DNA of 64,000 nt from an uncultured Chromatiaceae bacterium (GCA_937923175.1 CALALB010000039.1:4963-68962); one strand, 5' to 3'; numbered from the stretch's first letter, positions 27,220 through 43,813 are shown. Notes: a model not told the origin generated them from the letters alone. Numbers and translations are program-made.

Positions 27220-28077
27220 TCAGCAAGACCCGTTTGGGCAGGAAGAAAACCCTGCGCACTTTTGCGAATGTTCTTGATAGCAGTACTCAGAAAGGGATAC
27301 CGACCGATCATACGGCGATCGGGGTAGACGCAATGACCTGGCCAGTTCGGGAAGCGCCTCTGGTGTTGGCAGATGCAGCCGATCCCAGGGAGGGCTTGAG
27401 AGTTCGGCGCGGCTTAAAACCCGATAGGCCTCTGCCGCCTGGACCTGGGGGCCTAGGGTGTAGCTGCGAAAGGCATTGAGCCCTGCGATCTGGCGCCCAT
27501 AGTCCTGCTGAGCGAGCTGGCTTCGGAAGCAGGCGATAGCCTGCTGTTTTCGCTCGCTGAGCCCGCTGATATCGAGCAGGCGATTTGGCCACAGCGGCAC
27601 CCCGACCTCGTAAAAGACGAGCTGGCTAGCGCGCGCGCTGTGTCTGATCGCCTCGGCGCAGGCCAGGGCCAGATTGAGATGGTCTGGGTGGACCTCCCAG
27701 CATGAGGGCGCATAGACCAGCTCTGCCTGCCAGGCGGCGATCGCCTCCTGGATCTGGTTGAGCAATTCCTCGCCATAGCCTAGCCCGCGGTCCGGCCAGT
27801 CCCAGAAGATAGGTTCGCCATAGCCCAAGAGCCGGGCGGCGCAGCGCGACTCCTGGCGGCGGGTCTCCAGAGGATCGGGATGGCCTGGCGGGAGCCCCAA
27901 GGCGCCATCGGTGCAGATGATCACCCGCACTGGGTCTCCATCGGCAACATGGCGCATAATAGCCCCGCCGCAACCCAAGACCTCGTCGTCCGGGTGCGGC
28001 GCCAGGATCAATGCCCGACCGCGTCCCAGCCTTTGCTCGGCGCGGTAGGGGATGAATTCGTGTTCGGCGACAGACAT
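27220..28077 (-). CDS. PIG-L / LmbE family N-acetylglucosaminyl deacetylase
   Basis: ALILAPHPDDEVLGCGGAI is the PIG-L zinc-site motif; 285 aa. Confidence 0.8.
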   Translation of the reverse strand: MSVAEHEFIPYRAEQRLGRGRALILAPHPDDEVLGCGGAIMRHVADGDPVRVIICTDGALGLPPGHPDPLETRRQESRCAARLLGYGEPIFWDWPDRGLGYGEELLNQIQEAIAAWQAELVYAPSCWEVHPDHLNLALACAEAIRHSARASQLVFYEVGVPLWPNRLLDISGLSERKQQAIACFRSQLAQQDYGRQIAGLNAFRSYTLGPQVQAAEAYRVLSRAELSSPPWDRLHLPTPEALPELARSLRLPRSPYDRSVSLSEYCYQEHSQKCAGFSSCPNGSC

Positions 28078-28089
28078 AGGGTTGAATCC

Positions 28090-30606
28090 TTGATCCAGTA
28101 TTCGGTTTCTTGGTCATCTAGGCCTATTGATCAGCCTTCCGATCCGCTTGCACTCGGATTGGCTGCGCATCTGCGCGGCGATCTAGAACGGGCAATCGCC
28201 GAGTATGCGCGCGCCTTGCACGCGCGTCCAAACCGAATCCTTGCTGCTTATAACCTAGGGGTGGCGCTGATCGATAGGGGCTATGGCCTAAGCTCCATCC
28301 CCTTGCTTGCCCGGGTGGTCCGGCAATGGCCGTCTTCGGTAGTATTGCGCGCGGCCTGGCTATATGCCCTGTTGCGCGCCGGACGTCAGGCAGAGGCCGA
28401 ACACTGTCTGGCCGCCGCTGAATCCCTAGGGGTTGCTCCCGAGCACTTGGCGCGTTGGCGCCATTGGCTTGAGCAGCCTGATCTAGGGCTACTCGAGGCC
28501 GAGGCGCGCCCAACCCCAGCGCGGCCTAAAGACGAGCCGCTCGATATGCCTCTGTCCCTCCCCACCCAAACGATCGTCCAGCAACGCCTCCAGGAGACCT
28601 TTGCCCACTGGCTTGGGCTGTATCATTCCGGACAGTTCGCATCCCTGGTGCCTATCCTGGAACAGGCGCTCCTGGAGCAACCCTCCTGGGGTGAGGTGCA
28701 TCATCTGCGCGGGCTCGTTGCCCAGGCCCAGAAGGATTTACAAACCGCCCGTCTGGCGCTTGAACGTGCGCGCGATCTGATCCCCGGACGCGCCGAGATC
28801 TGGGACCATCTGGGGGTGGTTTATAGCCGGCTCGGGGAGCATCTTGCCGCCCACCAGGCCTTTGAGGAGTCGCTGTGTCTGAATCCTTTGCGCGCTGAGA
28901 CCTGGAACAATGCCGCAGATGCTGCATTGCGCGCCGGCGCCCTTGAGGCCGCCTTGCAATATGCGCATCAGGCCTTGCGCCTCGATCCCCAGCTGTTGGT
29001 GGCCGGCTATTCGCTGTTGCAGGCGGCATATAAACTGCTCGAGCGCGATCGGCCTGAGCGCGAGCCGGCGGACGATCGGGATGGGCCCCTGGCCTTTGGC
29101 GTCTCGTTGATTGGGAAACAGGTCAAGAGCCCAGACCAGGCGCTGATGGTGGCAGGCTGGCTGGCGGATCTTGGGCGTTTTGAGGATGCGGCGGCGATCC
29201 TGGCACACGGTCAGTCCTTGCCTGGGCCCCAGCCGCCCCAGTTATTGAGCGAGCTGATCAGCGCCCAGCTTTATGCCTGCAATTGGCAAGGCCTTGCCGA
29301 ACGCTGCCTCTCACTTGTTGAACAGGTGCGTACCCAGGATCGCTCTGTGGTTCGGCCCTTTGTTGCCTTGGCAATCCCTGGGTTGACTGCTGCTGACCAG
29401 CAGCGGGTGGCCCGCCTATTTGCCGAGACCCATTATGCCTCCTGGTCGGCCCGCGCCTCGATCCTGCCGCCTGCCCCTGCTAAGCCCAAAGGGGGTCGGT
29501 TGCGGATCGGTTATCTCTCGGATGATCTTCAGGAACATGCCACTGCCTATTTGACCGCCTCGCTTTTTGAATATCACAACCGCCAAAGGTTTGAGATCTT
29601 CGCCTATTCTACGGGTGCTGATGACGGCGGGCCGATGCGCCGGCGTCTGCAGGCGGCCATCGAGCATTTCGTCGATATCCGCGAGTTGGACCATGAGGAG
29701 GCGGCGCGGAAAATCCGTTTGGATGGCATCGATATCCTGGTCGATCTCAAGGGTTATACCCATCGTGCCCGCCTCGAGATACTCGCCCAGCGGCCTGCCC
29801 CCATTCAGATCACCTGGTTGGGTTTTCCAGGTGGGCTCGGTGCCCCATTCATCGACTATCTGATTGCCGATCCGATCGTCATCCCGCCCGAGCATACCCA
29901 TGATTACGATGAGACGATCGCCTATCTCCCCGATGCGTACGCCCCGGTCGATGAACGACGCACTGTCGACAGACAGCCGACCCGAACCGAGATGGGCCTT
30001 CCCGAGCAGGCGTTTGTCTTTGTTTGCTTCAATGAGACTTACAAGATCACCCCTGATCTCTTCGACCGCTGGTGCCGGATCCTTGGGGCTGTGCCAGGTT
30101 CAGTCCTTTGGCTGTATGCGCGGTTTGAGCGCGTTCGTCAAAACCTGAGGGCTGAGGCGAAAAGACGCGGCATTGAGCCGGAGCGTCTGATTTTTGCGGA
30201 TAAGTTGCCCCAGCCAGCGCATTTGGCCCGCATCCCCTTGGCTGATCTGATGCTCGATACCCTGCCGGTCAATGCCCATACCACGGCCTCGGATGCGCTC
30301 TGGATGGGGGTGCCGATCCTGACCTGTTTGGGCGAGACCTTTGCGGGGCGGGTTGCGGCAAGCCTGGTCCGGGCCTGCGGTCTGAATGAACTGGTGACTG
30401 AGAGCCTCGATGATTACGAGCGCTTGGCGATCGCCTTGGCGCGCGATCCTGCGCGTTTACAAGGGCTCAGGGACCGCCTGCACCAGGCCAAACGCAGCGC
30501 ACCCTTTTTCGACAGCCAGGGTTTCACCCGCCAGCTCGAGGACCTGTACGAGCGGATCTGGGCCAGGCACTGCCAGGGGTTGCCGCCGGCTCAACTCGGC
30601 CCCTGA
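28090..30606 (+). CDS. TPR-repeat protein with C-terminal GT41 (SPINDLY/O-GlcNAc-transferase-like) domain
   Basis: N-terminal TPRs (AIAEYARALHARPN, AYNLGVAL...). C-terminal RLRIGYLSDDLQEHATAYL...ITWLGFPGGLGAPFIDYLIADPIVIPPE...DTLPVNAHTTASDALWMGVPILT matches bacterial OGT/SPY-like transferases. The ORF opens at 27880, but its first 70 codons are antisense to the PIG-L gene. TTG 28090 is my guess for the start and is uncertain. Confidence 0.8.
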   Translation: MIQYSVSWSSRPIDQPSDPLALGLAAHLRGDLERAIAEYARALHARPNRILAAYNLGVALIDRGYGLSSIPLLARVVRQWPSSVVLRAAWLYALLRAGRQAEAEHCLAAAESLGVAPEHLARWRHWLEQPDLGLLEAEARPTPARPKDEPLDMPLSLPTQTIVQQRLQETFAHWLGLYHSGQFASLVPILEQALLEQPSWGEVHHLRGLVAQAQKDLQTARLALERARDLIPGRAEIWDHLGVVYSRLGEHLAAHQAFEESLCLNPLRAETWNNAADAALRAGALEAALQYAHQALRLDPQLLVAGYSLLQAAYKLLERDRPEREPADDRDGPLAFGVSLIGKQVKSPDQALMVAGWLADLGRFEDAAAILAHGQSLPGPQPPQLLSELISAQLYACNWQGLAERCLSLVEQVRTQDRSVVRPFVALAIPGLTAADQQRVARLFAETHYASWSARASILPPAPAKPKGGRLRIGYLSDDLQEHATAYLTASLFEYHNRQRFEIFAYSTGADDGGPMRRRLQAAIEHFVDIRELDHEEAARKIRLDGIDILVDLKGYTHRARLEILAQRPAPIQITWLGFPGGLGAPFIDYLIADPIVIPPEHTHDYDETIAYLPDAYAPVDERRTVDRQPTRTEMGLPEQAFVFVCFNETYKITPDLFDRWCRILGAVPGSVLWLYARFERVRQNLRAEAKRRGIEPERLIFADKLPQPAHLARIPLADLMLDTLPVNAHTTASDALWMGVPILTCLGETFAGRVAASLVRACGLNELVTESLDDYERLAIALARDPARLQGLRDRLHQAKRSAPFFDSQGFTRQLEDLYERIWARHCQGLPPAQLGP

Positions 30607-30746
30607 CCTGGGGATCGCCAGATGCCACTCGGACCTTCCTGGCAGGACGCAAACGCCCTCGGCAAGGGTATTTTGTTACCCAATAGGCCGGCCCCGGATG
30701 AGGCTGGAGGTTTGTCGCCGGCTAAAACAATCTAGATCATCCGCCC

Positions 30747-31709
30747 ATGGATCATTATCGATTGCGCGCTGCTGAACCCGCCGATGCGGAGGCGTTGCGC
30801 GGGCTATTTGCGACCGTTTTTGGCAAACCAGTGACCGCCGAGGTGTGGTGCTGGAAATATCAGCAGAGCTGTGCCCTCGCCCGCTCGGCCGGTTACCCCT
30901 GCGCCGATTCTTTGATCGCCTGCACCCCAGCGGGCCAGATCATCGCCCATGCCGGCGCCTTAACCCTTCCAGGTTGGTATCAGGGCAGGGCCATCCCGAT
31001 CATCCAGGTCTGCGACGTGATGGTCCATCCCAAACACCGCGGTGGGCTGGGTAAAAACAACCTCTTTACGGTCCTATTGCGTGAACTTCTCAAGCGGATT
31101 GCTGAGCGTCTGCCGCATGCCTTTGGGTACGGATTCCCCGGCGAGCGTCCCTATCTGCTCGGCGAACGCGCCCGCGTCTATGCGCGTCTGGAAAGGGCCT
31201 TAGAGTTCAGTATCCAGCCAAAAAGGGGCCTGGGACTGTGGTATACCGCGCCTCTTGCCTGGGATGAGCCGCGGATCGATCTCCTGTGGGAGCGTCTCAA
31301 GGAGCAATGTCGGTTGGGTCTCATCCGCAATCGCGCCTATCTGCGCTGGCGTTATGCGGTAAACCCTGCCCATCGCTATCGGCTATATGGACTCTATCAC
31401 CTAGGCCGCTTACGCGGTTGGGGGGTGGTCACAGAAGAGCACAGCGAGCTGCGCCTAATCGATTTTTGGGGCCCAGGAGATCTTATCCGCCCTGGCTTAG
31501 GGGCCTTGGCCCGGCGGGTCGGCCTGGAGTTGGGACAGCAGGGGCAGGGGTTGAATGCATGGTTGCCCTCAGGCTACCGCCAGAGCTGGTGGGGGGAGGG
31601 AAGGGAGACGCCTGTCGTCGTCGCCCAGATGTGCTGGCCAGGAGCGCTGAGGCCGACAGTTGCCCTTGATCTTTTGTATTATACGATGGGTGATGTGGAC
31701 ATCTTTTAG
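30747..31709 (+). CDS. GNAT-like N-acetyltransferase (two-domain, 320 aa)
   Basis: YRLRAAEPADAEALRGLF ... VMVHPKHRGGLGKNNLF (acetyl-CoA pocket R-x-x-G-x-G-like) followed by a second alpha/beta half. Confidence 0.6.
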   Translation: MDHYRLRAAEPADAEALRGLFATVFGKPVTAEVWCWKYQQSCALARSAGYPCADSLIACTPAGQIIAHAGALTLPGWYQGRAIPIIQVCDVMVHPKHRGGLGKNNLFTVLLRELLKRIAERLPHAFGYGFPGERPYLLGERARVYARLERALEFSIQPKRGLGLWYTAPLAWDEPRIDLLWERLKEQCRLGLIRNRAYLRWRYAVNPAHRYRLYGLYHLGRLRGWGVVTEEHSELRLIDFWGPGDLIRPGLGALARRVGLELGQQGQGLNAWLPSGYRQSWWGEGRETPVVVAQMCWPGALRPTVALDLLYYTMGDVDIF

Positions 31710-32002: not shown

Positions 32003-32030
32003 TTGACAACAACAATTTGTGGTGTAGACT
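32003..32030 (+). promoter_or_regulatory. candidate sigma70-type promoter for the 32170 gene
   Basis: TTGACA (32003-32008), a 16-nt spacer, then TAGACT (32025-32030), about 140 nt upstream of the ATG. A GTTGACAAC palindrome overlaps the -35 and its partner GTTGTCAAC is at 31874-31882. Confidence 0.3.
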
Positions 32031-32169
32031 CCTGAACGAGCCGCGGGCCAGCGTGGCACCTGTTTTGGATGGGCGGCGCCTCTGCTAACCCAGCATGGGT
32101 CATCCGTAGAATCCGGCATCTCAACCCTTGGTCAGTTTCAACCTGATAAATCACAGGAGAACTCAAACG

Positions 32170-33360
32170 ATGTTTGCGAAAAACAAACTCGCATCCGCGG
32201 TTGCGGCAGCCATCGGCGTCTCGGCGGTTGGCGTGGCGCAGGCCGATACCGTCTTTTTCCCCTATGTGGCTCTCAGCGAGACCGTCACCACCGTCGTCAG
32301 CGTGATCAATACGACTGAAAACAACTGGAATTCCGATGGTTCAGCGCGCGCTGCCACCCATCTGCATTACCGGTTTTATTATAAGACTGGGGCCAATGCA
32401 AACAACTTGACGGCCAACTGCGAGGAGTATAACGAATATCTGCCAACCAGCCGCAATGATATCCAGACGATCGATTTAGGCGGTATCTTTGGCGCAAACA
32501 CCTCAGGCGTCCTGTTCAATGACCCCAGTGTCAATAACCAATGGCAACAGTCCGGCCGTGATTATGCCTTTGGCCGTTATCTCATCCCGGCACGCGGTTA
32601 TCTGACCGTCGATAACAGCAATGCCGATCCTAGTTTTATCGCCAACCGGGGGGAGTTGGCGAATATCCCCACGCTGAGCGGCGAGGCCTTCGTATTCGAG
32701 TTTGCCAGCGGCGCGGCCTGGGGCTATCCGGCCTATTCATCCTTGCCACCGCGGGCTATTACGGATACCCTCTATCCTGCCGATTTCCGTTACGCCGCAT
32801 CGCGCAACCCAGCGGATGTGGCGTTCATGCCCTTGTCTGAGGTTACCACTGCCTTCCTTGTGACCCCTGTTAGTGCGGATCAGACTCCGGATGTCGCGAA
32901 TAATTATCGGGCGCGTATCGATATTCGCAGCACTGTACGCGGTGATCTCTTTGATCGCGATGAGAACCTGATCTCCGGTACCTCGCCTGTGGATGTGGTC
33001 TGCGTGGGTCGCGTCAATCTCCCTGATCTGATCAGCGACGGGGTTGAGGCCCGTCTGAGCAATGGCGGCTGGGGTCGGGTGTGGAACTATCGCCTTGTCC
33101 AGGTCGGCAGCAACTGGGTCCCCGCCAACTTTGCGCGTGCTAACCAGCCCAGCACCGGCGGGCTGACTCCTACTCCAGCCAATGCTGCTGCGGGTGCGTT
33201 TGCAGATCCCCGTTACAATGCGGATGATGGCGCTGTTGTGATCAAGCTCGAGTATAATCTCGGCGCTACGCTCAACGGCGAGGCGGTGGGTGGCACCTAT
33301 AACAATGCCATCATGCTTCGGCCTGATCCCAACAACTATTTCCTGAATAATTATCAATAA
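32170..33360 (+). CDS. secreted protein of unknown family (396 aa, Asn/Thr/Ala/Gly-rich)
   Basis: ATG 32170 with caggaga upstream. Sec signal MFAKNKLASAVAAAIGVSAVGVAQA/DT. Only two Cys; no recognisable domain. Confidence 0.75.
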   Translation: MFAKNKLASAVAAAIGVSAVGVAQADTVFFPYVALSETVTTVVSVINTTENNWNSDGSARAATHLHYRFYYKTGANANNLTANCEEYNEYLPTSRNDIQTIDLGGIFGANTSGVLFNDPSVNNQWQQSGRDYAFGRYLIPARGYLTVDNSNADPSFIANRGELANIPTLSGEAFVFEFASGAAWGYPAYSSLPPRAITDTLYPADFRYAASRNPADVAFMPLSEVTTAFLVTPVSADQTPDVANNYRARIDIRSTVRGDLFDRDENLISGTSPVDVVCVGRVNLPDLISDGVEARLSNGGWGRVWNYRLVQVGSNWVPANFARANQPSTGGLTPTPANAAAGAFADPRYNADDGAVVIKLEYNLGATLNGEAVGGTYNNAIMLRPDPNNYFLNNYQ

Positions 33361-33386
33361 TCCCTTCTAGCACCTAATACCTTTGC

Positions 33387-33411
33387 AGGCCGCCATTAGG
33401 CGGCCTTTTTT
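33387..33411 (+). terminator. rho-independent terminator
   Basis: AGGCCGCC-ATTA-GGCGGCCT perfect 8-bp stem followed by T6, 27 nt after the stop codon. Confidence 0.8.
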
Positions 33412-33479: not shown

Positions 33480-35273
33480 ATGGGAAATAAGAATTCTAAC
33501 CTTGCGTGGCTATTTGGCCTATGGGCAATCAGCAGTTATCTGGTTGCTGCCCCCCAGGATTCAACAGGCGGTTTGTTTAGGCCCCTGACCGGCGCCTGGA
33601 TGGAGGGCGCAGGTAACTGGGACTATGCCCTAGATGGTTCTGGCCAATTATGGCTTGCCTATTATGACCGCGATCGGTTGTTGAGATTGCGCACGCCCCA
33701 GCGACAGGAGCGCCTCTTGGTCCCCGACAACCGAGCCCAGTCGCCCTCGGGGATTGCGCTTGCACCCACCGCCAGAGGGGTGATCGCCCTGTGGCGCGAT
33801 AAGCATCCAGATAAAGGCCTGTATCTGCTCGACAGCGAAAGGATGGCACCGGATAGGCCGATCAACCCAATCGAGATCGGCGGCGACACCGAACCCTTGG
33901 CGCGTTTTGTCGCCCGCGTGGATCAAGACGACCGGGTACATCTGCTCTGGTATGGCGAAAAGGCCGGCCAGCCGACTGGAAGCATCCACAACCTTTATTA
34001 CCGGCTGTTTGATCGTAAGACCGGCGAGCTTTCGCCGATCGAGTTGGTTGCTGCTGGGATCTATCCAGTGATGGCTGTAGATCAAGGGGGCAACCTGGTC
34101 GTGGTCAGCTGGCAGGGCGACGTCCAAGGTCGGCGGATCGTCGCCCGCGCCCGACCTGCAGGCGGCCAGTTCGCCGAGCCCGTGGTGATTGCCGATGATG
34201 TCTCGGAGATCACCCCAGTCTTCGAGGCCTTTCATGTCAATGACCGATGGTTGGTCTTTTGGGTCTCACAATATGGGCTCGATCGGCGCGGTTTTCGGCT
34301 GGAAGGTGCCTATTCCGACGATCTAGGCAAGAGCTGGCAGCGCCTTGATTTTCCCGCCCTCCATGGCTATGACATCGCCAATCTGAATCTGGCCGATGAC
34401 GGCCAAGGCCATCTGGTCTTGGCGATCACTGCGCGCCAGCGCACCCAGCCGAATGAGCAAAAACAGGATGTCTATGTCATCCGCTCCTCTGACCGCGGTA
34501 CCAGCTGGTCTGAGCCGACCAGGCTGCGCAGCAGTGACCCTGAAACCCTGGCGCTGTTTCGTGCCCGCTATCCCGTGGTCGCATTTGGTCGGAGGCCGGG
34601 TCAGGTTCTGGTGGTCTGGGAGGATTGGCGCACCATCCGCTCAAGCCTATATGCCAGCCTGTCGAACGACTATGGGGCGACCTGGCAGCCCTCTGAGGTC
34701 CCTGTACCGCGCGAGCCTGGAACCAATCTGGGTCTACGCTATGCGCCCAATGCGCTCTATGCCACAGACCAGGGTTTCCATCTGATCGCCGAGCATTACC
34801 CGGATGACCAGCTGAAAGAACAGAGGCTCGTGGCATTGGCGTTCGATGAGACAAATCTCAAGCAATGGGCCGAGGCAGCGCGCCACCAGCAGGTCAAGGC
34901 GGATGAAGGCTCATTGCGCAAACGGGTCGAATCCTACTGGCAGGCGATGCAGCAGGGGGACTACAAGACCACCTATGAGCACCTCGACTCATTCTTCAGG
35001 TCCTTGACGCCGCTTGATGTCTATCTCTCCAAGATGGGCAAGATCAAATATACCCAGGCCAAGATCGAAGGGGTCCAGATCAAGGGGCCGATCGCCGAGG
35101 TTCGCCTTCAGGTGCAAGCATCCATCCCGCCCTTTAAGGCACAGACGACCGGCGAGACAATTAAAAGGGATGAACGGCGGATTCAGATCCTAGAGCGCTG
35201 GCTGTGGATCGATGGCGACTGGTTTAAGGAATTCCGGATCGAGTCGCAGGATATCGCCTTTACTCGCTATTGA
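33480..35273 (+). CDS. secreted BNR/Asp-box repeat protein (sialidase-like beta-propeller) with NTF2-like C-terminal domain
   Basis: ATG 33480 (GAGG 5 nt upstream; the ORF opens at GTG 33474). Signal peptide LAWLFGLWAISSYLVAA. Asp-boxes YSDDLGKSWQ, SSDRGTSWSE and LSNDYGATWQ. Confidence 0.75.
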   Translation: MGNKNSNLAWLFGLWAISSYLVAAPQDSTGGLFRPLTGAWMEGAGNWDYALDGSGQLWLAYYDRDRLLRLRTPQRQERLLVPDNRAQSPSGIALAPTARGVIALWRDKHPDKGLYLLDSERMAPDRPINPIEIGGDTEPLARFVARVDQDDRVHLLWYGEKAGQPTGSIHNLYYRLFDRKTGELSPIELVAAGIYPVMAVDQGGNLVVVSWQGDVQGRRIVARARPAGGQFAEPVVIADDVSEITPVFEAFHVNDRWLVFWVSQYGLDRRGFRLEGAYSDDLGKSWQRLDFPALHGYDIANLNLADDGQGHLVLAITARQRTQPNEQKQDVYVIRSSDRGTSWSEPTRLRSSDPETLALFRARYPVVAFGRRPGQVLVVWEDWRTIRSSLYASLSNDYGATWQPSEVPVPREPGTNLGLRYAPNALYATDQGFHLIAEHYPDDQLKEQRLVALAFDETNLKQWAEAARHQQVKADEGSLRKRVESYWQAMQQGDYKTTYEHLDSFFRSLTPLDVYLSKMGKIKYTQAKIEGVQIKGPIAEVRLQVQASIPPFKAQTTGETIKRDERRIQILERWLWIDGDWFKEFRIESQDIAFTRY

Positions 35274-35437: not shown

Positions 35438-36592
35438 GTGCATCTCTTGATCCTGCACCTTGCGACTGTCTTCGGCGGCGCCGAGCGCACGACCAGCAAT
35501 CTGCTGACCTATCTAGACCGGGGGGTGGTGCGCCGTCTGACCCTGGCTGGGCCTGCAGCCCTGCGCCCACTCGTCCCGGCGCATTATGACGCCTTTATCG
35601 ATACCTCGGGTGTGATTCAGCGCGGTTGGTTTACCGGTGCCCGCGAGCTTTGGCAGGAGACGAGGTCAGCGGGCGCGTTGCTTGCCTCAGTGCAGCCAAG
35701 ACCGCAGGTGATCCTGGGGATGATGCATTATCCGGCAGCGCTTGCCGTATTTGGGGCATGCCGCTCTCGCCTGCCGGTCAAGACCATCGCCAGCCTGCGC
35801 GGCCCGGTCTATGAGCATATGCGTCGCTATGAGCATGGGATTTGGCGCAGGTCATTTTTGACCCTCGCGGTGGGGGCAACGGCGCGCCTCGCTGATCGGG
35901 TGATCGTGCCATCGGCAGGTACTGGCGATGAGCTCAAACGCCGCTTTTGGGGACCGGAAGACAGGATCCGGGTCATCCCCAATGGGATCGACCTCGCTGA
36001 GGCAAGACGGCTCGCCGCTGAGCCGGCGCAGGGTCTTGAGGATCTGCCCGCTGGATGGCCAAGGCTGTGTACGGCAGCGCGACTCTCCGCCGAAAAGGAT
36101 TTGCGGCTCTTGCTCGAGTCGTTTCGGCGCCTCCAGGCCATGCAGCCTGCTGTCTTGATCCTGGTCGGCGATGGCCCCGAGCGCCCCAGGCTCCAACAGC
36201 AGGTGGCCGACTGGGGCCTGGGGGAGCGGGTGCGTTTTGTCGGAGAACGCGCCAATGTTTATCCCTATATGGCCCAGGCGGATCTCTATGTCCATACCTG
36301 TCAATTTGAGGGCTTTGGCTATACGATGCTTGAGGCCCTGGCCTGTGGGACCCCGGTAGTCGCCACCGATTGCCCCTATGGACCGCGGGAGGTGCTGGGC
36401 GCTGGGCGCTATGGGGTCTTGGTGCCACCTGGCGATGCCGAGTCTCTGGCCCAAGCATTGGCCTCCGTGCTCGCCGACCTAGAGCGCCGGCAGGAATTGT
36501 CTGAGTTGGGGCGAAGGCGCGCTGAAGGGCTATCGGTCGAACGGATGGCGCGCGGCTATGAGCAGGTATTTGGAGAATTGTTGGGCAGGTAG
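35438..36592 (+). CDS. glycosyltransferase family 4 (GT-B, GT1-group)
   Basis: GTG start with agggagag upstream. N-terminal LILHLATVFGGAERTT and C-terminal FEGFGYTMLEALACGTPVVATD (E-x7-E region). Confidence 0.8.
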   Translation: MHLLILHLATVFGGAERTTSNLLTYLDRGVVRRLTLAGPAALRPLVPAHYDAFIDTSGVIQRGWFTGARELWQETRSAGALLASVQPRPQVILGMMHYPAALAVFGACRSRLPVKTIASLRGPVYEHMRRYEHGIWRRSFLTLAVGATARLADRVIVPSAGTGDELKRRFWGPEDRIRVIPNGIDLAEARRLAAEPAQGLEDLPAGWPRLCTAARLSAEKDLRLLLESFRRLQAMQPAVLILVGDGPERPRLQQQVADWGLGERVRFVGERANVYPYMAQADLYVHTCQFEGFGYTMLEALACGTPVVATDCPYGPREVLGAGRYGVLVPPGDAESLAQALASVLADLERRQELSELGRRRAEGLSVERMARGYEQVFGELLGR

Positions 36593-36662: not shown

Positions 36663-37874
36663 ATGGATACTGCAATGCGATCGCCGACCCCTTCTGATGC
36701 TTGGCAGCGGATTGCCAGACTAGGTGTCTCCCTGCTCGGCGCAACCCTGGGCGTAGCCCTTTGGCTTGGTTTGCTCTACTGGCTCGGCGATGACCCCGAG
36801 CGGCCAAGGATCCAGTTGGAGGCCGAATCCTTACAGCTCACTGCAGGGGAGGGCTCCCAAACCGACCAAGGACTGGCGATCAGTCGCCCAGGGGCTAATG
36901 GACTGATCTTGGTGCAGGGGGGCATTCAGCCATTGCGCGCGCGCGACTATCAGGTCCTGAGATGGAGGATCCAGGGTCTGGAAGAGGCGCATGAGCTGCG
37001 TCTGGTTTGGGCAAGCCCAGCGAGCGTGCGCAGGCCCTTTGATCGGGTCCTGACCCCGGCTGAACGGCGCGCGGGTATGATCAGGCTCGATGCTGATCCC
37101 AGATGGGAAGGAATGATCATTGCCTTGGGTCTAGCCATCGTTACGCCGCCTGGCAGCTCTGATGGACCCTGGGTCATCCAATCACTCAGCATTCTGCCGA
37201 CCCGTCCAAGGCCTTCCGAACTGATGCATCTGATCTGGTCCGATTGGCTGAGCGATCAGGGCTGGGTGGGGCGCTCGATCAATTTTACCGATTCGGCAGC
37301 AGGCCAGGGGCGCGTCCGCCCGCTCTGGCCGATCGCTGTATGGTGCGGTCTGGCTATATTGCTGTCTCTCTTGTTGGCCATACCCTGGCGCGGCAATCAT
37401 TCCTGGTGGCCCTATCTGCTGATCCTGTGGCTCGGCTGGCTCGCACTCGATATCCGCTGGCAGATCTTGCTGTCAGGGCGCCTGGATCATATCCGCTCGC
37501 TGTATGCCGGGCTTGCCGGTGAAGAACGCCACAGGGTCAGTTTAGACCAGCCATTTTGGCCGATCGTCCAATCCTTGCGTGCCAAATTGGGTCCCCAACC
37601 GCAGCGTCTGTTGATCCTCGCCGATCCAGCCGACTATGTCGCCAATCGTTTGCGTTATCACCTGCTGCCGCATAATGTCCGGCTAGTGCCTGAGCTCGCG
37701 GACACCACTGGGCTGCGGGTGGGCGACGCGCTGCTTCTGCTCAGCCCAGTCGCCCGCGGGTCTTATGATCCAGCCCGCGCCGAACTGAGAGGCTCCCAGC
37801 GGCGGGTACGGGTGGAGCAGCAGCTCGATCTGGGTGGGTTTGGGGTATTGCTGCAGGTAACCGAGGTCGATTGA
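36663..37874 (+). CDS. membrane protein, unknown family (N-terminal TM, ~170-aa extracytoplasmic domain, then several TM helices)
   Basis: 403-aa ORF. Hydrophobic segments LGVSLLGATLGVALWLGLLYWL, WPIAVWCGLAILLSLLLAI and WWPYLLILWLGWLAL. Its stop overlaps the next start (TGATG at 37872-37876). Confidence 0.65.
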   Translation: MDTAMRSPTPSDAWQRIARLGVSLLGATLGVALWLGLLYWLGDDPERPRIQLEAESLQLTAGEGSQTDQGLAISRPGANGLILVQGGIQPLRARDYQVLRWRIQGLEEAHELRLVWASPASVRRPFDRVLTPAERRAGMIRLDADPRWEGMIIALGLAIVTPPGSSDGPWVIQSLSILPTRPRPSELMHLIWSDWLSDQGWVGRSINFTDSAAGQGRVRPLWPIAVWCGLAILLSLLLAIPWRGNHSWWPYLLILWLGWLALDIRWQILLSGRLDHIRSLYAGLAGEERHRVSLDQPFWPIVQSLRAKLGPQPQRLLILADPADYVANRLRYHLLPHNVRLVPELADTTGLRVGDALLLLSPVARGSYDPARAELRGSQRRVRVEQQLDLGGFGVLLQVTEVD

Positions 37875-39325
37875 TGGGCTGGATAGGGGTGGGATTGGCA
37901 TTATTGTTGCCTTGGCTAGCCGGGGCACTGGCGCTGCGTCGCCTTTGGCTGGATGGCAAGGCTGGCGCTTGGGCCTTGTATATCGGCTATGGCTATTGGC
38001 TGGGGCTGCCTGGGGCAGCGTTAGGGTTAATGGCGCTGTCGGGCTTTGGCCTGAGGCCGGCCTTCTGGCTGATCCTGCTCTCGTGTTTGGCGATCACCGG
38101 CTGGGCCGGACGCGATCTTGGCTGGCCAAAAGGATTCGTTGCTGGGGAATTGGGCGCTGGGCGTCCCGTTCTCCATGCCCTGCGGCTTAGACGGATTGGA
38201 TGGCAGGGGGGGCTGATTCTGGCGCTATCACTCTGGCTTGGCTGGCGCCTGGCGATCTTGGCGCTCCATGTCTGGTATCAACCCCTGTTTCCCTGGGATG
38301 CCTGGACGACCTGGGCGCTGCGGGCGCGGGTGTGGTCTGAGCTCGGCCAACTCGTCCCCTTTGTTGCCCCAGAGCGCTGGGCAACTGAGCAGTCGGATAG
38401 GCTTTATACGCTCGAGGCTTGGCGCTATCCGCCCTTGGTCTCGCTCATCGCGCTTTGGCCGACCCTTCCGCTGCAACGCTGGGATGAGACTGCAGCCAAT
38501 CTGCCTTGGTTAGGGGCCGGGTTGAGTTTGGGCTTGGGGCTCTATGCTCAGCTACGCCGCTGGGGGGCGGATCGACTCACTAGTCTATTTGGGGTGTGGT
38601 TACTGATGTCTCTGCCCCTGCTGGAGACCCATATCGCCTTGGCTGGCTATGCCGATCTCTGGCTGGCCGGCGCCCTGGGGTTGAGCCTGATCGCCTTTCT
38701 TCACTGGGTGCGTTCGGGCGAGCGCCAGCAGTTGGCACTATGCCTGATCCTGGCAGCGGCTTGGCCGCTGATCAAGCTAGAGGGGACGGTTTGGCTGAGC
38801 TTGCTGGTTCTGGGACTGATTGTTGCCAGGCCGCGCTGGGGCCGGCTGGGTTTGGCGCTCGCCGGGGCGATGGCACTCGGTCTGCTCGCCCTATGGTTCA
38901 TCGGCATCAGGCTTGCCACCCCCTGGGGTATGCTCGAGCTGAGCACCCAGGCCATCGCATTCCCCTTCATCGGGCATTTTGCACTCGGCTATCACCCGAA
39001 TTGGTGGGCGCTCGGCCTGATGCTTTTTGGGCTTGAGAATTGGCATCTACTTGGATATCTGCTGATCGCCGGGATCATGCTTGCCGGTCATCGGCTCATC
39101 CGGGGCGGCGAGCCCTGGCTGCGCGCCGCCTTTGTCCTCGTCAGCGGCAGCCTTGGGCTGTTATGGGTCCTCTTTTTTCTAACCGATGCCGCCGCCTGGT
39201 TGGAGCAAGGGACAGCATCCGGGCGGCTTTTGCTTCAGTTTGCGGTGCTCTATGTCTTTTTCCTGCTAGTGCTTTGGCTCGATATTCAAGGGGTCGGATC
39301 GCCTGCAGCCAAGAGTTCCCGATAA
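37874..39325 (+). CDS. large polytopic membrane protein (>=10 TM), candidate GT-C-type glycosyltransferase / polymerase-ligase-like
   Basis: About 483 aa, almost entirely hydrophobic helices, translationally coupled to the preceding gene. The family call is by topology only. Confidence 0.6.
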   Translation: MGWIGVGLALLLPWLAGALALRRLWLDGKAGAWALYIGYGYWLGLPGAALGLMALSGFGLRPAFWLILLSCLAITGWAGRDLGWPKGFVAGELGAGRPVLHALRLRRIGWQGGLILALSLWLGWRLAILALHVWYQPLFPWDAWTTWALRARVWSELGQLVPFVAPERWATEQSDRLYTLEAWRYPPLVSLIALWPTLPLQRWDETAANLPWLGAGLSLGLGLYAQLRRWGADRLTSLFGVWLLMSLPLLETHIALAGYADLWLAGALGLSLIAFLHWVRSGERQQLALCLILAAAWPLIKLEGTVWLSLLVLGLIVARPRWGRLGLALAGAMALGLLALWFIGIRLATPWGMLELSTQAIAFPFIGHFALGYHPNWWALGLMLFGLENWHLLGYLLIAGIMLAGHRLIRGGEPWLRAAFVLVSGSLGLLWVLFFLTDAAAWLEQGTASGRLLLQFAVLYVFFLLVLWLDIQGVGSPAAKSSR

Positions 39326-40488
39326 AGGGCGGCGATCTGGGCGGCGACCGAGACGATCGCAAACTGCCGGGTTAGGGCCTGACCGCCGGCCTGACCGAGT
39401 TGTCTGGCCAAGAGTGGGTCTTGGGCGAGCAAACGGATGGCCTGGGCGAGTGCATGTGGATCATTGGGGGGGACGGTCAGCCCGTGTCCGGCCTGACGGA
39501 TGACCCAGCCGACCCCAGAACCCAGGATATCGCTTGCGATCACCGGTTTGCCGAAACGCATGGCCTCGAGCTGAACCAGGCCGAATGCCTCGGTGCGCTC
39601 GAGCGAGGGCAGACCCAGGAGATCACAGCTTGCCAGGAGCGCCCAGACGATGGGGTCAGGTTGATAGCCCAGGAGCCGGACCTGCTTGCCCAGGCCCAGG
39701 GCCTGAATCAACCGCTCAAGCCGAGTGAATAACGCACCCCCGCCGACGATCAATATCCCTGCCTCGGGCAGCTCGGCAGCGGCGCGGATCAGGACCTCAT
39801 GACCCTTGTAATAGGTCAGCCGACCGATCGCGAGTACCCGCCAGCCTCGCTGCCCACCTGCATTGTGGGGGCATACACTCTCCCACAGACCCTCGGCCAG
39901 GGTGCGACTGTCAGCATCTGGCTCGGGGATGCGTTGGGGATCGAGTCCCAAGGGGATGACCCTACAGCGCCCCCGCCAAGGGACAAGAGACCTGCTTGCG
40001 GCCAAATAATCGGGTGAGGTGACGATGATCCGGCTTGCCTGCCTCAGGAGCGCCTGCTCGAATGGTCGATAGATCCCATAGGCCCAGCGCAGCCGCCGAT
40101 CGAGCTGGGAAGGGACCACATCGGCGTGCCAATGGATGACCCAGGGTAGACGCCGGGCTGAGGCAAGCCCCAGGGCCCAAAAGGCCGAGGTGTTGGGCAG
40201 ATGCAGATGCAACAGGTTCGGTTGGAACGTCTCGATAACCTGCTGGAGCCACAGCGGAAAGGCGGGACTAATTGGGGCATAAAGCCATTGCCCAAAGGTG
40301 GGTGCGCGATAAACCAGCGGCCCGCTTTCTCCCCCTGGCCGCACGCCGCACCCGCCTAGGCGCTCATCATGGACCAGGGCTGCAACCCCAAGCCCCCGGG
40401 CAGACAATGCCGGCAGCAGATCCCCAAGAAAGTATTCAATCCCCCCGGGATGAGGCGGATAGTATTTGCCCAGGTGCAGGACGCGCAT
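39286..40488 (-). CDS. glycosyltransferase family 4
   Basis: MRVLHLGKYYPPHPGGIE N-terminus from ATG 40488. C-terminal EAFGLVQLEAMRFGKPVIASD. The start shares one base with the DUF2304 stop (TGATG at 40486-40490). Confidence 0.8.
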   Translation of the reverse strand: MRVLHLGKYYPPHPGGIEYFLGDLLPALSARGLGVAALVHDERLGGCGVRPGGESGPLVYRAPTFGQWLYAPISPAFPLWLQQVIETFQPNLLHLHLPNTSAFWALGLASARRLPWVIHWHADVVPSQLDRRLRWAYGIYRPFEQALLRQASRIIVTSPDYLAASRSLVPWRGRCRVIPLGLDPQRIPEPDADSRTLAEGLWESVCPHNAGGQRGWRVLAIGRLTYYKGHEVLIRAAAELPEAGILIVGGGALFTRLERLIQALGLGKQVRLLGYQPDPIVWALLASCDLLGLPSLERTEAFGLVQLEAMRFGKPVIASDILGSGVGWVIRQAGHGLTVPPNDPHALAQAIRLLAQDPLLARQLGQAGGQALTRQFAIVSVAAQIAALYRELLAAGDPTP

Positions 40489-41000
40489 CAGGATCGGTTC
40501 GCCCCTTGATCTGGACGGGATTCGGCTGCGGTTATGGCCTGATCGGCAGTTGTTGCCTGCCCGCATCCGGCTGCATTCGGGCCGGTGCTCGGCTCAGCAG
40601 CGGGTGTCTGGCCTTCTGATACTTGCTGATGGCTGGTTAAACCGGTATCCGAACCAAGGGCAATACCCTGTTGAAATAAGCGGCCTTCGAGCAAGGCCAG
40701 CCGTTGGACAAGGCGGCGGATCCGGCGTTCTTGACGCGAACGCTCGAGATCCATGGTCAGGATCTTGAGCAAAAGCAGGGCAAAGCCCAACAGCACCGCC
40801 AGGATCGGCGGGTAATTGATCCCCAGATAGTGCGCCAGATAGTCGAAGATCCCGGGGAACAAGCCGAGTAGCACGACCACGATCGCCGTCCCTATCCACC
40901 AGATGGCGTAAGGGCCGTGCAGATGATCGCGCCGCACCAGCCACAGGATGGTTGCTGCAACCAGGACGCCGATCAGCATCGAGGTCATCTGGTAGGTCAT
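40488..41000 (-). CDS. DUF2304-family small membrane protein with low-complexity C-terminal tail
   Basis: LIGVLVAATILWLVRRDHLHGPYAIWWIG...ILAVLLGFALLLLKILTMDLERS matches the DUF2304 pattern that usually accompanies a GT2 gene. Confidence 0.7.
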   Translation of the reverse strand: MTYQMTSMLIGVLVAATILWLVRRDHLHGPYAIWWIGTAIVVVLLGLFPGIFDYLAHYLGINYPPILAVLLGFALLLLKILTMDLERSRQERRIRRLVQRLALLEGRLFQQGIALGSDTGLTSHQQVSEGQTPAAEPSTGPNAAGCGQATTADQAITAAESRPDQGANRS

Positions 41001-41201
41001 GGTTGCAACTCCAAAGGGGCCGATCCTGCCCAGGTGTCAGTCTGGATGCAGCCGAGACAGTGGAATGCTTGGGTAAAGCACCTGCCTCTAGGCGAAGGGG
41101 GGTATTTTGCTGGCAATGCAGGCATGATTCGTTCCAGCGGAAGTGAGCGCGGTCATGAGCCAGGCGGAAGCTTGAATGTTCTCGAGCGAATGGGACCCTG
41201 C

Positions 41202-42020
41202 CTACTTGCGACTATATCCGAACCTGGCTAGGCACAGCACAGTGGTCTGCAGCATATAGCTGCCGACAGTCCACCAGGATCTGAATACCCGCGAGATTCC
41301 CTGAGTGCGCGGTTGCATCCTGACGGGGACCTCGATGACCCGCAGGCCATGACGGTTCAGCAATAAGAGCACCCCAACGTCTTGATAATCGAGCAGGGTG
41401 GCGGTGCATCCGGCCAGCAGGTCGATGGCCTGTCTATCATAGGCGCGAAAGCCTGAGGTGATGTCCTCAACAGCAAGTCCGGTCAACCAGCGGAAATAAC
41501 GCCAGGCCAGACGACGGGCGCAGCTTGCCCGGGCTGGAAAGGCCCCGATCACCACATCGGCCTGTCCTAGCCGAATGGGTTCTAACAGATCGCCGATCGA
41601 GTCAGGCTCATGTTGGCCATCGGCATCCAGGGTGATCGCCATCTGATACCCAAATTGCTTGGCATAACGCAGTCCTGTCTGAATCGCCCCCCAGGCGCCG
41701 AGTTGGAGGATCAGGGACAACACAATGGCACCAGCAGCTTGCGCCTGCTCGACTGTAGCATCAGAGCTACAATCATCGATGACCACTACCGGATAACCCC
41801 ACAGCCGTCGCGCTGCGCGCACAATGGCACCCACCGTCGCCGCCTCGTTATGGGCCGGGATCAGGATCACCGCCTCGCGCCCCTGGTGTGGAGTCGACGG
41901 CTGGTGACGCATCAGGGTGGAAAGATGCGTATCTCGATTGCATGGGGGTAAGTCAGGCGGTTGATCTACCCTTTTGCCGCAATCGGCTTGATCGGATGAT
42001 GGCTTGGGATACACTTTCAT
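41202..42020 (-). CDS. glycosyltransferase family 2 (polyprenyl-phosphate sugar synthase-like)
   Basis: VILIPAHNEAATVGAIV ... VVVIDDCSSDAT ... ITLDADGQHEP (DxD-type) motifs. The start may be the internal ATG at 41912 instead. Confidence 0.8.
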   Translation of the reverse strand: MKVYPKPSSDQADCGKRVDQPPDLPPCNRDTHLSTLMRHQPSTPHQGREAVILIPAHNEAATVGAIVRAARRLWGYPVVVIDDCSSDATVEQAQAAGAIVLSLILQLGAWGAIQTGLRYAKQFGYQMAITLDADGQHEPDSIGDLLEPIRLGQADVVIGAFPARASCARRLAWRYFRWLTGLAVEDITSGFRAYDRQAIDLLAGCTATLLDYQDVGVLLLLNRHGLRVIEVPVRMQPRTQGISRVFRSWWTVGSYMLQTTVLCLARFGYSRK

Positions 42021-42205
42021 CTTGGGGTCGGGGAGACAGAACGATCCTTCGGTCCGGTACCAGGCTAGTCAATTGCAGCAAGGGACGCCCCTAGACCCGC
42101 GGCTACCTTAGGCACAATGTAACATGTTGGGTTATGGCAATAGGTGACGGACAGCTGGGTAAGGTTTCACGACATCATAGCGCAGGTTTAGCGGCGGAGG
42201 TTTTC

Positions 42206-43813
42206 ATGAACAGGCGATTGAAAGGGGCGGTTGGGTTTGTGTGCCTATTGCCATTGGCAGCAACAGCTGCCTCGCTCGGCACCAATCCAGGCGCTGACTA
42301 TTGTAAAAGCGATCGGGAGTCTAGCTATGCCCAGGGCTATGCCGCGGGCGAGGTCAATGGCTGGAACCTAGGCCACCAGGTGGGACATGACTTTGGAATC
42401 CGGCAATGTGTGGCTGAGCCTTTGCAATTTGGGGTCACCCTTGCCTCGGTAATTCCGCCGGCGACCTTTGGCGAGACCGAACCCAATGACAATATGTTTT
42501 CCGCTGACCCACTCGTTCAGGGTCAGGCCTTCTGGGGGCAACTCTATAGTCTGGCCGATCAGGATTGGTATTACACCCAAACCACCGCGGCTAACCAGAA
42601 TATCCTAGTGACCTTTTCGGTCCCGGCCTGGTTGAGCAATGTCGATCTCATACAAGGCAAGCCAGCAGTCTGGAATATCTCGGTGCGCGATGCGGCAGGC
42701 AATATCTTCGCGAACTATAACACCAATATCATCGGTGCCATTGATTCCTATGACCGGGATAAAGAAAGCTTTTATGCGATGACCTATGGCGTCACCGCGG
42801 GATTGGCTGGGACCTATTATGTCGTCGTCAGGCCGGTCAATGACAGCGTAGTATGTGGGGATGCGTGTAAATATGTGGCAGCCTATCCCTATGCGGTTAC
42901 GGTCGTCGTCCAGGATTCACCCCTTCCTGGCCGCCAACCCATCGTTGGCTTTTATGATACCGAGGTCGAACCAAACGATATCCCTAGCCGCGCCAATCCC
43001 TTGGCCACGGGGGTTACCATGTATGGCCTGATCAGCCTGACCTTTAATACCCCCATCCCGCAAGGTGATGATGCCGTCTGGGGCCAGGGCGAAAACGACT
43101 GGTTTGTCTATAAGAGCAATGGCAATGAGATAGCCACCTTAAGCTTTTGCGAGCGTGAGTCCTGTGGCCCGGGCAACTGGTCGGTCGAGCTCTATGATCA
43201 GGCCATGGCCAATCGGTGGGAATCAGGCGAATCCCGGCAGACCCTGCGTCCACTCTTTTCGATCAATACCGATACCGTCAATGACCCAAGCGCGGTTTAT
43301 CGCATCGGCCTGCGCGATCCCGGTTATTATTTCCTGCGGGTCAATCACAAGCGGCTGTTGACAGCCAGCTGTTCGAGTTATCGCTTTGTCTCCAAGACCG
43401 ACCCGAGTGGCTTTGCCGAGCCCTGTCAATGCGACACCGGCACCAGCTGTTATGTGCCGATCGATATGAAGCCTGATGAATGTAAAGCAGAGGGTCTAGA
43501 CTGCAAGGCCCAGATCCTCGCCTGTATCGAAAAGGTTGATCCAGGCTGCTTTACCGCAGATGGTGCGAATGGTGGCCCCAGATATCCGAGCAACTGTGGT
43601 CAAAGCAGCGGTGGGGGTGAAATAACCCCCTGTGCAACCTATCAGATGTCTGCCCGCTGCGGCTGCAGCAAATACCTCGGGGAGGTTGAGATCCCGGATA
43701 ATGCCTATACCAGCCCCTATAATTTCACCTGGAGCGGGACCCAATTGCCGCCGCATACCATCGATAGCGATGCCTATGATGACTATGGAAAGCGCCCGAA
43801 TCCCTATCAATAG
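42206..43813 (+). CDS. secreted protein with two PPC (bacterial pre-peptidase C-terminal)-like domains and a Cys-rich C-terminal module
   Basis: ATG 42206 with ggagg upstream. Signal MNRRLKGAVGFVCLLPLAATAAS. ETEPNDNMFSADPL...LADQDWYY and VEPNDIPSRANPL...GENDWFVY are PPC-type motifs. I counted about 14 Cys in the last ~150 residues. Confidence 0.7.
   Translation: MNRRLKGAVGFVCLLPLAATAASLGTNPGADYCKSDRESSYAQGYAAGEVNGWNLGHQVGHDFGIRQCVAEPLQFGVTLASVIPPATFGETEPNDNMFSADPLVQGQAFWGQLYSLADQDWYYTQTTAANQNILVTFSVPAWLSNVDLIQGKPAVWNISVRDAAGNIFANYNTNIIGAIDSYDRDKESFYAMTYGVTAGLAGTYYVVVRPVNDSVVCGDACKYVAAYPYAVTVVVQDSPLPGRQPIVGFYDTEVEPNDIPSRANPLATGVTMYGLISLTFNTPIPQGDDAVWGQGENDWFVYKSNGNEIATLSFCERESCGPGNWSVELYDQAMANRWESGESRQTLRPLFSINTDTVNDPSAVYRIGLRDPGYYFLRVNHKRLLTASCSSYRFVSKTDPSGFAEPCQCDTGTSCYVPIDMKPDECKAEGLDCKAQILACIEKVDPGCFTADGANGGPRYPSNCGQSSGGGEITPCATYQMSARCGCSKYLGEVEIPDNAYTSPYNFTWSGTQLPPHTIDSDAYDDYGKRPNPYQ

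Follow-up and report, generated by a model that had tools for sequence, protein, structure and literature searches.

Several described glycosylation and surface systems bear comparison with the locus reported here, a block of twelve genes at positions 27220-43813 of a 64,000-nt stretch of DNA (the window) from an uncultured Chromatiaceae bacterium. GacI/GacJ/GacL of Streptococcus pyogenes and PpgS/Rv3632/Rv3779 of Mycobacterium tuberculosis attach an N-acetylhexosamine or hexosamine (HexNAc/HexN) side chain by way of a polyprenyl-phosphate-sugar donor, while ArnC/ArnD/ArnT, Bordetella LgmABC and Francisella FlmF2/NaxD/FlmK modify lipid A or lipopolysaccharide (LPS) with amino sugars. The VapA surface layer (S-layer) of Aeromonas has its own genes resembling a type II secretion system (T2SS) and depends on O-antigen. 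Caulobacter FlmG is described as a protein of tetratricopeptide repeats (TPRs) and a GT-B glycosyltransferase (GT) domain that acts in pseudaminic or legionaminic acid (Pse/Leg) systems. The DUF2304 proteins GacJ and Rv3632 are activating partners of GacI and PpgS, respectively, enzymes that in turn feed GT-C transferases (10.1101/180810). HMW1C of Haemophilus, a GT41 enzyme like the bacterial OGT homologue XcOGT, is reported to modify HMW1, which is secreted afterwards (PMC3012730).

Our comparison with related genomes indicates that the twelve-gene block is very probably a conserved, non-flagellar envelope cluster. Its best reading, to which we assign a probability of roughly 0.55, is a surface-glycoconjugate system that serves one or both of the secreted proteins encoded within it; as part of this reading, the block would have been inherited vertically in the Chromatiaceae and would not be a flagellar accessory island. 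We propose more tentatively that a secreted protein is the glycan's target or its anchor partner. The window has a G+C content (GC) of 60.7% (0.607) and its encoded proteins resemble those of purple sulfur bacteria, with Caldichromatium japonicum as the closest named relative (77% identity for a 535-aa protein of the block). Open reading frame (ORF) listing, together with Pfam and NCBIfam scans of all 12 products, gave the following genes and signals:

27220-28077, minus strand: PIG-L family N-deacetylase, 285 aa, cytoplasmic (Pfam PF02585, E 2e-26)
~28060-30606, plus strand: OGT-type TPR array with a GT41 transferase domain, ~848 aa (Pfam Glyco_transf_41, PF13844, 318.6 bits)
30747-31709, plus strand: GNAT acyltransferase, Acetyltransf_9, 320 aa (Pfam, E 2e-9)
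32003-32030, plus strand: sigma-70-like promoter match upstream of the 396-aa gene (consensus match only)
32170-33360, plus strand: secreted all-beta protein, 396 aa (signal-peptide-like N-terminus; no Pfam or NCBIfam match)
33387-33406, plus strand: intrinsic-terminator-like hairpin after the 396-aa gene (top-ranked site)
33480-35273, plus strand: exported BNR/sialidase-like beta-propeller with an extra C-terminal domain, 597 aa (Pfam BNR_2, E 7e-9; hydrophobic N-terminus)
35438-36592, plus strand: GT4 'a' (GT4a), 384 aa, cytoplasmic (Pfam Glycos_transf_1, E 1e-37)
36675-37874, plus strand: membrane protein, 399 aa, three transmembrane segments and two soluble domains (no Pfam match)
37874-39325, plus strand: polytopic membrane protein, 483 aa, probable GT-C fold (no Pfam match)
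39286-40488, minus strand: GT4 'b' (GT4b), 400 aa (Pfam)
40488-41000, minus strand: DUF2304 small membrane protein, 170 aa, GacJ/Rv3632-like (Pfam PF10066, E 6e-27, 94 bits)
41202-41912, minus strand: GT2, 236 aa, putative polyprenyl-phosphate-sugar synthase type (Pfam Glycos_transf_2)
42206-43813, plus strand: secreted protein, 535 aa, two PPC-like segments and a Cys-rich C-terminus (no Pfam match)

A preliminary description of this DNA had counted thirteen genes, although its own list names twelve; the ORF listing gives twelve, as does gene calling on Thermochromatium tepidum (T. tepidum) and on further assemblies of this organism. Its assignments of the PIG-L, TPR-GT41, GNAT, BNR, DUF2304, GT2 and two GT4 products were all matched in Pfam, and the two polytopic membrane proteins and the orphan secreted protein that it listed are present as given above. 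The final gene had been called a PPC/Cys-rich secreted protein: the secreted-type N-terminus (signal-peptide-like) and the richness in cysteine (19 Cys) stand, whereas a PPC domain was not detected by Pfam at E ≤ 0.01 and finds its support in homologues (PF04151 on three of them, and UniRef names), alongside two 'EPND' motifs in the sequence. The lengths of the 396-aa and 535-aa products are identical to those of the called proteins P0121 and P0241. The scans also bore out that the block lacks genes for nucleotide-sugar synthesis (Pse, Leg or others), Wzx/Wzy/Wzz and an ABC exporter, and they detected in it neither an initiating phosphoglycosyl transferase nor a flippase with a polymerase or Wzm/Wzt. 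The two membrane proteins probably supply the periplasmic transfer step.

T. tepidum, Thiorhodococcus minor, T. fuscus, T. drewsii and Imhoffiella purpurea all have the twelve genes, with order and orientation unchanged. Thiobaca trueperi has ten of them; its PIG-L and 535-aa genes were not found on the fetched sequence. Identical gene order is kept over at least four genera at 45-70% protein identity. The block is composite, consisting of two modules; module B (the membrane pair with GT2, DUF2304 and GT4b) and the core around the 396-aa secreted protein in module A also occur apart. Linkage was assessed in 80 loci around homologues of the 483-aa protein (contigs from one genome per species, 10-kb flanks), further loci around chosen homologues, and 52 loci from metagenomes with the 396-aa family as anchor, all compared by tblastn with 21 window proteins. 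The 483-aa membrane protein is held by 86 loci, 59 of them with at least 9 kb to the right of its gene. Linkage within module A was counted over 55 distinct loci of the 396-aa family, taking as denominators those with enough sequence.

Module A is built around an invariant trio of the 396-aa secreted protein, the BNR propeller and GT4a. The BNR gene lies 3' of the 396-aa gene in 21/21 loci, and wherever 4.5 kb or more of downstream sequence was available (14 loci), a GT4a orthologue is present. The TPR-GT41 gene (14/17 loci) and an operon for a T2SS with GspK, L, M and secretin (5/9 loci) lie upstream of the 396-aa gene; PIG-L and GNAT usually accompany the core. Where the preliminary description had proposed modification of 'flagellin and/or' the secreted proteins, its second half thus gains circumstantial support, because the 396-aa family always occurs with BNR and GT4 and usually with GT41, PIG-L and GNAT across the 55 loci; the flagellin half failed, as set out below. 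Outside the Chromatiaceae, the core adjoins the T2SS operon and a Wzm/Wzt-like ABC exporter, the Competibacteraceae-type order being T2SS, GT41, secreted protein, BNR, ABC-2 permease, GT4, ABC ATPase, GNAT, PIG-L. Orthologues of GNAT sit beside PIG-L in Competibacteraceae-type and Thiohalocapsa loci, and in one Competibacteraceae-type locus PIG-L is fused to three GT2 domains.

Twelve of 14 core loci carry either the Wzm/Wzt-like exporter (5) or the GT-C-like pair (7), never the two together, and both occupy one slot, after BNR and GT4. We read them as alternative routes by which a glycan reaches the periplasm. In the block, a GacI/GacJ/GacL-like module stands in for the exporter, made up of GT2, DUF2304 and the 483-aa probable GT-C with its 399-aa partner. 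The earlier remark that the locus does not look like a standard one for O-antigen or capsule holds for the window; sister versions of the core, however, do carry an exporter.

In module B, the 399-aa and 483-aa proteins occur together in 79/86 loci and are joined by GT4b, DUF2304 and GT2 in about 48-53 of 90. A GT4b orthologue (52-67% identity) is found in 48/90 loci, always with DUF2304 and GT2, and the DUF2304 gene adjoins GT2 here as in about 52/90. The 399-aa protein has transmembrane segments at about 13-38, 214-240 and 248-266. Homologues of the 483-aa protein are named 'RgtA/B/C/D-like' or 'dolichyl-phosphate-mannose-protein mannosyltransferase' in UniRef and share the invariant motifs WDAWTTW and ALAGYAD. 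Its AlphaFold2 model (predicted local distance difference test, pLDDT, 82) has mostly GT-C proteins as best, if weak, Foldseek neighbours in the PDB (AglB, AftA, PglB, STT3, Pmt1), and we regard it as a probable GT-C-fold glycosyltransferase. The best NCBIfam matches of the GT2 are PpgS (85 bits), AglJ, ArnC and a dolichyl-phosphate hexose transferase. In betaproteobacteria such as Nitrotoga, gmd and genes for an epimerase, a GT2, a GT4 and a Bac_transf initiating transferase precede the membrane pair, often with Wzm/Wzt-like genes near, a context that places the pair in a lipid-linked glycan pathway. Module B of the Competibacteraceae lies among O-antigen-like genes (GT2s, WbsX, a methyltransferase, an epimerase).

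The GT41 domain scores far above its Pfam cutoff (25 bits), and phmmer relates the protein to human OGT (E 5e-94) and to Xanthomonas XcOGT (E 2e-92). In OGT structures, the His of 'HPT', the Lys of 'YK' and 'HTT..D' are catalytic or UDP-binding; aligned to XcOGT and human OGT, the segments 'QEHAT', 'FNETYKITP' and 'NAHTTASDALW' of the GT41 keep the His, Lys, HTT and Asp positions, so that the enzyme appears OGT-like and catalytically competent. Its start is uncertain by ~30 nt. Should it be the GTG at 28060, the divergent 5' ends of the PIG-L and GT41 genes overlap by ~18 nt (28060-28077); 14 nt separate the two starts in T. tepidum, and the GT41 start in the window may lie slightly further downstream. 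In an uncultured betaproteobacterium, three TPR-GT41 paralogues stand in a row downstream of the membrane pair (L080:13710-21338), an independent association of GT41 with the 399-aa/483-aa pair.

The 396-aa family comprises 437 clusters at 50% identity and has no Pfam family. The AlphaFold2 model of the window protein is all-beta (pLDDT 85.6; predicted TM-score, pTM, 0.88), and Foldseek returned no structural match in the PDB or BFVD (TM-score about 0.1-0.2), which also removed a known S-layer protein as its identity. The S-layer candidates proposed for Chromatium okenii, in the only Chromatiaceae S-layer paper we found, are of type I secretion system (T1SS) type and unrelated. SdrD_B, CarboxypepD_reg or DUF11 domains, known mainly from proteins of the cell surface, are present in longer members of the family. 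A PDB sequence search with the neighbouring BNR protein returned designed propellers and a weak sialidase match only.

The 396-aa gene has a promoter-like site, TTGACA and TAGACT with a 16-nt spacer (10/12), which is the best match in 27-46 kb, and a terminator-like hairpin with an 8-bp stem (7 GC pairs) followed by TTTTTAT; moreover, it is the sole gene on 30 contigs of about 1.1-1.8 kb. Because of these promoter- and terminator-like sites and single-gene contigs, the gene is compatible with an abundant monocistronic transcript. Some homologues bear the UniRef name of PEP-CTERM cargo, an identity we rejected because neither the window protein nor any of eight homologues ends in a transmembrane helix or PEP motif. 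In Thiohalocapsa sp. PB-PSB1 (L092:7017-8137), the T2SS operon is separated from the 396-aa homologue by an Exosortase_EpsH and an XrtH-associated protein; an exosortase is nearby in this locus only, and its 396-aa homologue has no PEP-CTERM tail. A search of the literature on pink-berry Thiohalocapsa yielded no mention of the 396-aa protein. As for the 535-aa protein, all 84 homologues found with a source name (84/84) are from Chromatiaceae, and the gene follows the GT2 module in 13 loci.

Taken as a pathway, these parts could work as follows. In the cytoplasm, GT4a would add GlcNAc, PIG-L would deacetylate it and GNAT would re-acylate the amine, giving a hexosamine unit by an add-deacetylate-re-acylate logic like that of MshA/B/D, BshA/B and NodC/B/A; the best NCBIfam matches of PIG-L are BshB1/MshB and those of GT4a include BshA, all under cutoff. 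Aided by DUF2304, the GT2 would charge polyprenyl phosphate with a hexosamine-type sugar on the cytoplasmic side, and after flipping the 483-aa GT-C-like protein and its 399-aa partner would hand the sugar to a periplasmic acceptor. The glycan may then decorate or anchor the co-encoded secreted protein or proteins at the cell surface with the assistance of the BNR propeller, and GT41 may modify the exported preprotein in the cytoplasm before Sec, as HMW1C does HMW1. The gene identities, their conservation, the linkage counts and the lack of flagellar linkage come directly from the analysis; the identity of the sugar, its acceptor, and glycosylation as opposed to mere glycan binding by the secreted proteins are what we infer here. 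A wider proposal is possible, if on balance unlikely: a fairly widespread and hitherto undescribed system of Chromatiaceae, Competibacteraceae and related uncultured Proteobacteria dedicated to one surface beta protein of novel fold, with cytoplasmic recognition by TPR-GT41 (possibly with a TPR/SEC-C protein), export through Sec and a dedicated T2SS, BNR-aided hexosamine glycosylation or anchoring, and glycan delivery by Wzm/Wzt or, in purple sulfur bacteria, by GT2/DUF2304/GT-C. It would amount to a bacterial OGT whose secreted substrate is defined.

To the right of the block lie the flagellar filament genes. Pfam confirmed the four neighbours named in the preliminary description, all on the minus strand:

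44276-44677, minus strand: fliS (Pfam FliS)
45727-48165, minus strand: fliD, 812 aa (Pfam FliD_N/C)
48225-48704, minus strand: flaG (Pfam FlaG)
48779-50881, minus strand: fliC, 700 aa (Pfam Flagellin_N/C)

This adjacency had suggested a flagellin-glycosylation island, in which TPR-GT41 would bind flagellin or FliD through its TPRs and O-glycosylate it before export while the other transferases extend or supply the glycan. Flagellin and FliD are unusually long and rich in Ser and Thr, TPR-bearing flagellin glycosyltransferases such as FlmG exist, and the GT41 looks catalytically competent. The synteny check proposed for this idea came out against it: fliS, fliD, flaG and fliC were found in 0/90 related loci from other organisms (tblastn, E ≤ 1e-5, 10-kb flanks) and in 0/55 distinct loci of the 396-aa family (fetched flanks), and the loci without them include the full block in five species, T. 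tepidum among these, and the two nearest relatives. In T. tepidum, trpE-like, HAD and rpe genes take the place of fliS, while the left flank is that of the window (pyrD, DJ-1, the TPR protein, the BPSS1780-family protein); in C. japonicum and the nearest uncultured relative (82% identity) the right flank holds a trypsin/Flg_new_2 protein, a GT4 and HSP20. As the left flank is common to the window and T. tepidum and the right flanks differ among relatives, the junction with the filament genes is a right-border rearrangement specific to this lineage, and since the 12-gene order is the same in every species with the full block, the cluster is older than the fliS junction. The flagellin reading is left unsupported because adjacency to fliC and fliD was its sole evidence and is confined to this organism.

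Other findings point the same way. Thiocapsa rosea, T. roseopersicina and Thiohalocapsa sp. PB-PSB1 also carry core genes, and Thiocapsa is described as non-motile (PMC8767323). The block has none of the Pse, Leg or other nucleotide-sugar genes, its TPR-bearing transferase has an OGT-type GT41 catalytic domain, whereas FlmG is described with a GT-B domain in Pse/Leg systems, and five of the 12 proteins are membrane-bound or exported and so out of reach of flagellin, which bypasses the periplasm. The block is probably not a flagellin-glycosylation island, and flagellin or FliD as the substrate is highly improbable. Adjacency to fliC in one genome was misleading, and the synteny comparison decided the point.

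Modification of LPS, lipid A or extracellular polysaccharide (EPS) is a stronger rival, in which the GT2, DUF2304 and GT-C-like proteins with PIG-L would add an amino sugar in the manner of ArnC/ArnT, LgmABC, FlmF2/NaxD/FlmK or GacI/J/L, while the BNR and 396-aa proteins, periplasmic or extracellular, would process or bind the glycan instead of being its substrates. GT2 with DUF2304 and a GT-C protein is the published logic for polysaccharide decoration, the company kept by module B in Competibacteraceae (O-antigen-like genes) and by its membrane pair in betaproteobacteria (gmd, a phosphoglycosyl transferase, Wzm/Wzt-like genes) agrees with it, as does the fusion of PIG-L to three GT2 domains, and the BNR fold is sialidase-like while the 396-aa family has many invariant acidic residues. 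It leaves unexplained the linkage of the secreted-protein gene to a protein-directed GT41 and to T2SS as well as the separately and strongly transcribed look of the 396-aa gene, and it sits poorly with the independent occurrence of module B and the secreted-protein core; we judge it unlikely, though a serious contender. That unrelated envelope genes were juxtaposed by chance is improbable. The sub-modules do separate: about 40 loci have module B by itself, Nitrotoga has the membrane pair without the rest, and in Allochromatium vinosum the 535-aa gene stands on its own. But chance would not account for an identical 12-gene order in at least four genera at such identities, for core linkage of 100% in independently sampled loci, or for an ABC exporter and a GT-C-like pair that swap in one slot and exclude each other.

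Several observations weigh against a glycoconjugate system serving the secreted proteins. The GT-C neighbours of the 483-aa model are weak (TM-score about 0.4, E 0.06-3, probabilities up to 0.99), its family has no Pfam match, and a search of PDB sequences with the family profile gave one spurious match. The GT2 falls far under all equivalog cutoffs (325-529), which leaves a hexosamine-type sugar a tentative assignment. Some core loci, that of Thiohalocapsa PB-PSB1 for one, lack GT41, which is therefore not obligatory, and neither is the 535-aa gene, which stands alone in A. vinosum; no T2SS genes lie within the 64-kb window. Invariant Asp, Glu and His residues are numerous in the 396-aa family, an FDRDE motif among them, and instead of being glycosylated itself the secreted protein could act on a polysaccharide, as an enzyme or a lectin. 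Since T. tepidum and the present organism both have flagella, an action of GT41 on flagellin in trans is conceivable. The loci were anchored on two genes with 10-kb flanks, as far as the linkage counts reach, and both the glycosylation and the surface location of the block's proteins are predictions.

The preliminary description had judged the two secreted-protein genes AT-richer than their neighbours by eye, and computed GC agrees (0.563 for the 396-aa gene and 0.548 for the 535-aa gene vs 0.607 for the window). The drop falls mostly on codon position 1 (GC1 0.58 and 0.55 vs about 0.70), with GC3 only slightly lower (0.63 and 0.61 vs about 0.69), and follows from the proteins being rich in Asn, Thr, Ser and Tyr, which make up 25-28% of both; fliC and fliD have the same position-1 pattern. 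Horizontal transfer was set aside as the cause, given that the shift is mainly at codon position 1, that no tRNA or insertion sequence flanks the block and that it is collinear across genera. Low GC is weak evidence of foreign origin. An Rfam scan of the window found two tRNAs and nothing else.

On the left, two further genes adjoin the block:

23907-26018, plus strand: TPR protein with a SEC-C motif, 703 aa (Pfam TPR_2, Tcf25, SEC-C)
26021-27049, plus strand: BPSS1780-family membrane protein, start codon uncertain (NCBIfam NF041043, 199 bits vs cutoff 90)

A TPR/SEC-C orthologue lies directly left of the cluster in T. tepidum (L093; 59% identity) and left of it in I. purpurea (56% identity over 92%), and a BPSS1780-family gene lies left of PIG-L in both. 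Because this pair is kept in Imhoffiella despite different genes beyond it, the conserved unit probably begins two genes further left, at 23.9 kb. A DUF5672/SEC-C/TPR protein stands between the membrane pair and GT41 in the betaproteobacterial locus (L080:11465-13726), and a SEC-C/TPR partner that recurs in this way might connect the system with targeting to Sec.

Around the right border, the ~1-kb gap between fliS and fliD (44678-45726) holds no convincing ORF; a 174-aa ORF within it has a high content of Arg, Ala, Pro and Gly and a GC of 0.63 at codon position 2 (GC2). As a scar or a variable spot, the gap could be a trace of the rearrangement by which the filament genes arrived. No significant repeat came out of a search around the fliS junction, and an independent assembly of the same organism (L090) stops ~280 bp past fliS. 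Within FliD, a segment of ~110 aa is duplicated ('DTSGGGYAFKIQVDGIDSGSIRLTGSFNSLEELRAELQSRINGD' and 'DTSGGAYNFKIRVNGVESNTIALTGTFNTAEELRAALENAINAD'). Beyond fliC (51035-54764) follow directly an 897-aa fusion of a Ser/Thr protein kinase with an FGE-sulfatase (formylglycine-generating-enzyme-like) domain and, beside it, a divergent FHA-domain protein. The trypsin/Flg_new_2 protein of the relatives, ~860 aa, comes directly after the 535-aa homologue (L087:12247-14832 and L089:3475-6042, C. japonicum and the nearest relative), and despite the domain name no flagellar genes lie near it in either.

If the proposed reading is true, the locus offers a concrete candidate substrate for bacterial OGT-type GT41 enzymes, whose targets are mostly unknown, a new secreted-protein family without Pfam or structural match and with an obligate BNR partner, and two interchangeable glycan-delivery back-ends to the periplasm in one conserved system. 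Its hosts are of environmental importance: purple sulfur bacteria and, in wastewater plants, the glycogen-accumulating Competibacter. Each part has precedents, in OGT/HMW1C, GacIJL and PpgS, Arn-like systems and T2SS-secreted surface proteins; for the combination of a secreted-protein/BNR/GT4 core with an OGT-type enzyme, an unclassified membrane pair and an exporter/GT-C swap, a limited literature search found no described counterpart.

Compared with the described systems one by one, the block shares with the Pseudomonas and Campylobacter flagellin islands and Caulobacter FlmG the position of glycosyltransferase genes beside fliC/fliD (in this genome only) and a transferase with TPRs, and differs from them in its linkage (0/90 loci), its lack of nucleotide-sugar genes, its OGT-type GT41 and its many periplasmic and membrane proteins. 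Like the Arn, LgmABC and FlmF2-NaxD-FlmK systems, it combines a GT2, a deacetylase and a probable GT-C protein that could serve to bring an amino sugar to the periplasmic face; unlike theirs, its deacetylase is of the PIG-L family and tracks with the secreted-protein core, not with the GT2. As in HMW1C/HMW1 and XcOGT, the GT41 is encoded beside a Sec-exported protein and has OGT/XcOGT catalytic motifs, but it carries a long OGT-like TPR array, which to our knowledge HMW1C lacks, and its neighbour is not a two-partner-secretion adhesin. With the VapA S-layer, sister loci share a Sec-signal, probably abundant beta protein with variable inserts, encoded beside T2SS and ABC glycan export, whereas the 396-aa protein has no sequence or fold similarity to known S-layer proteins and the window no T2SS. 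The block departs from GacI/GacJ/GacL and PpgS/Rv3632/Rv3779 in its Gram-negative gammaproteobacterial host, in a GT-C candidate outside the Pfam GT-C families, in the 399-aa partner that accompanies it and in a well-conserved GT4 within the module, and it shares with both the adjacent GT2 and DUF2304 genes and a nearby polytopic protein whose model resembles GT-C.

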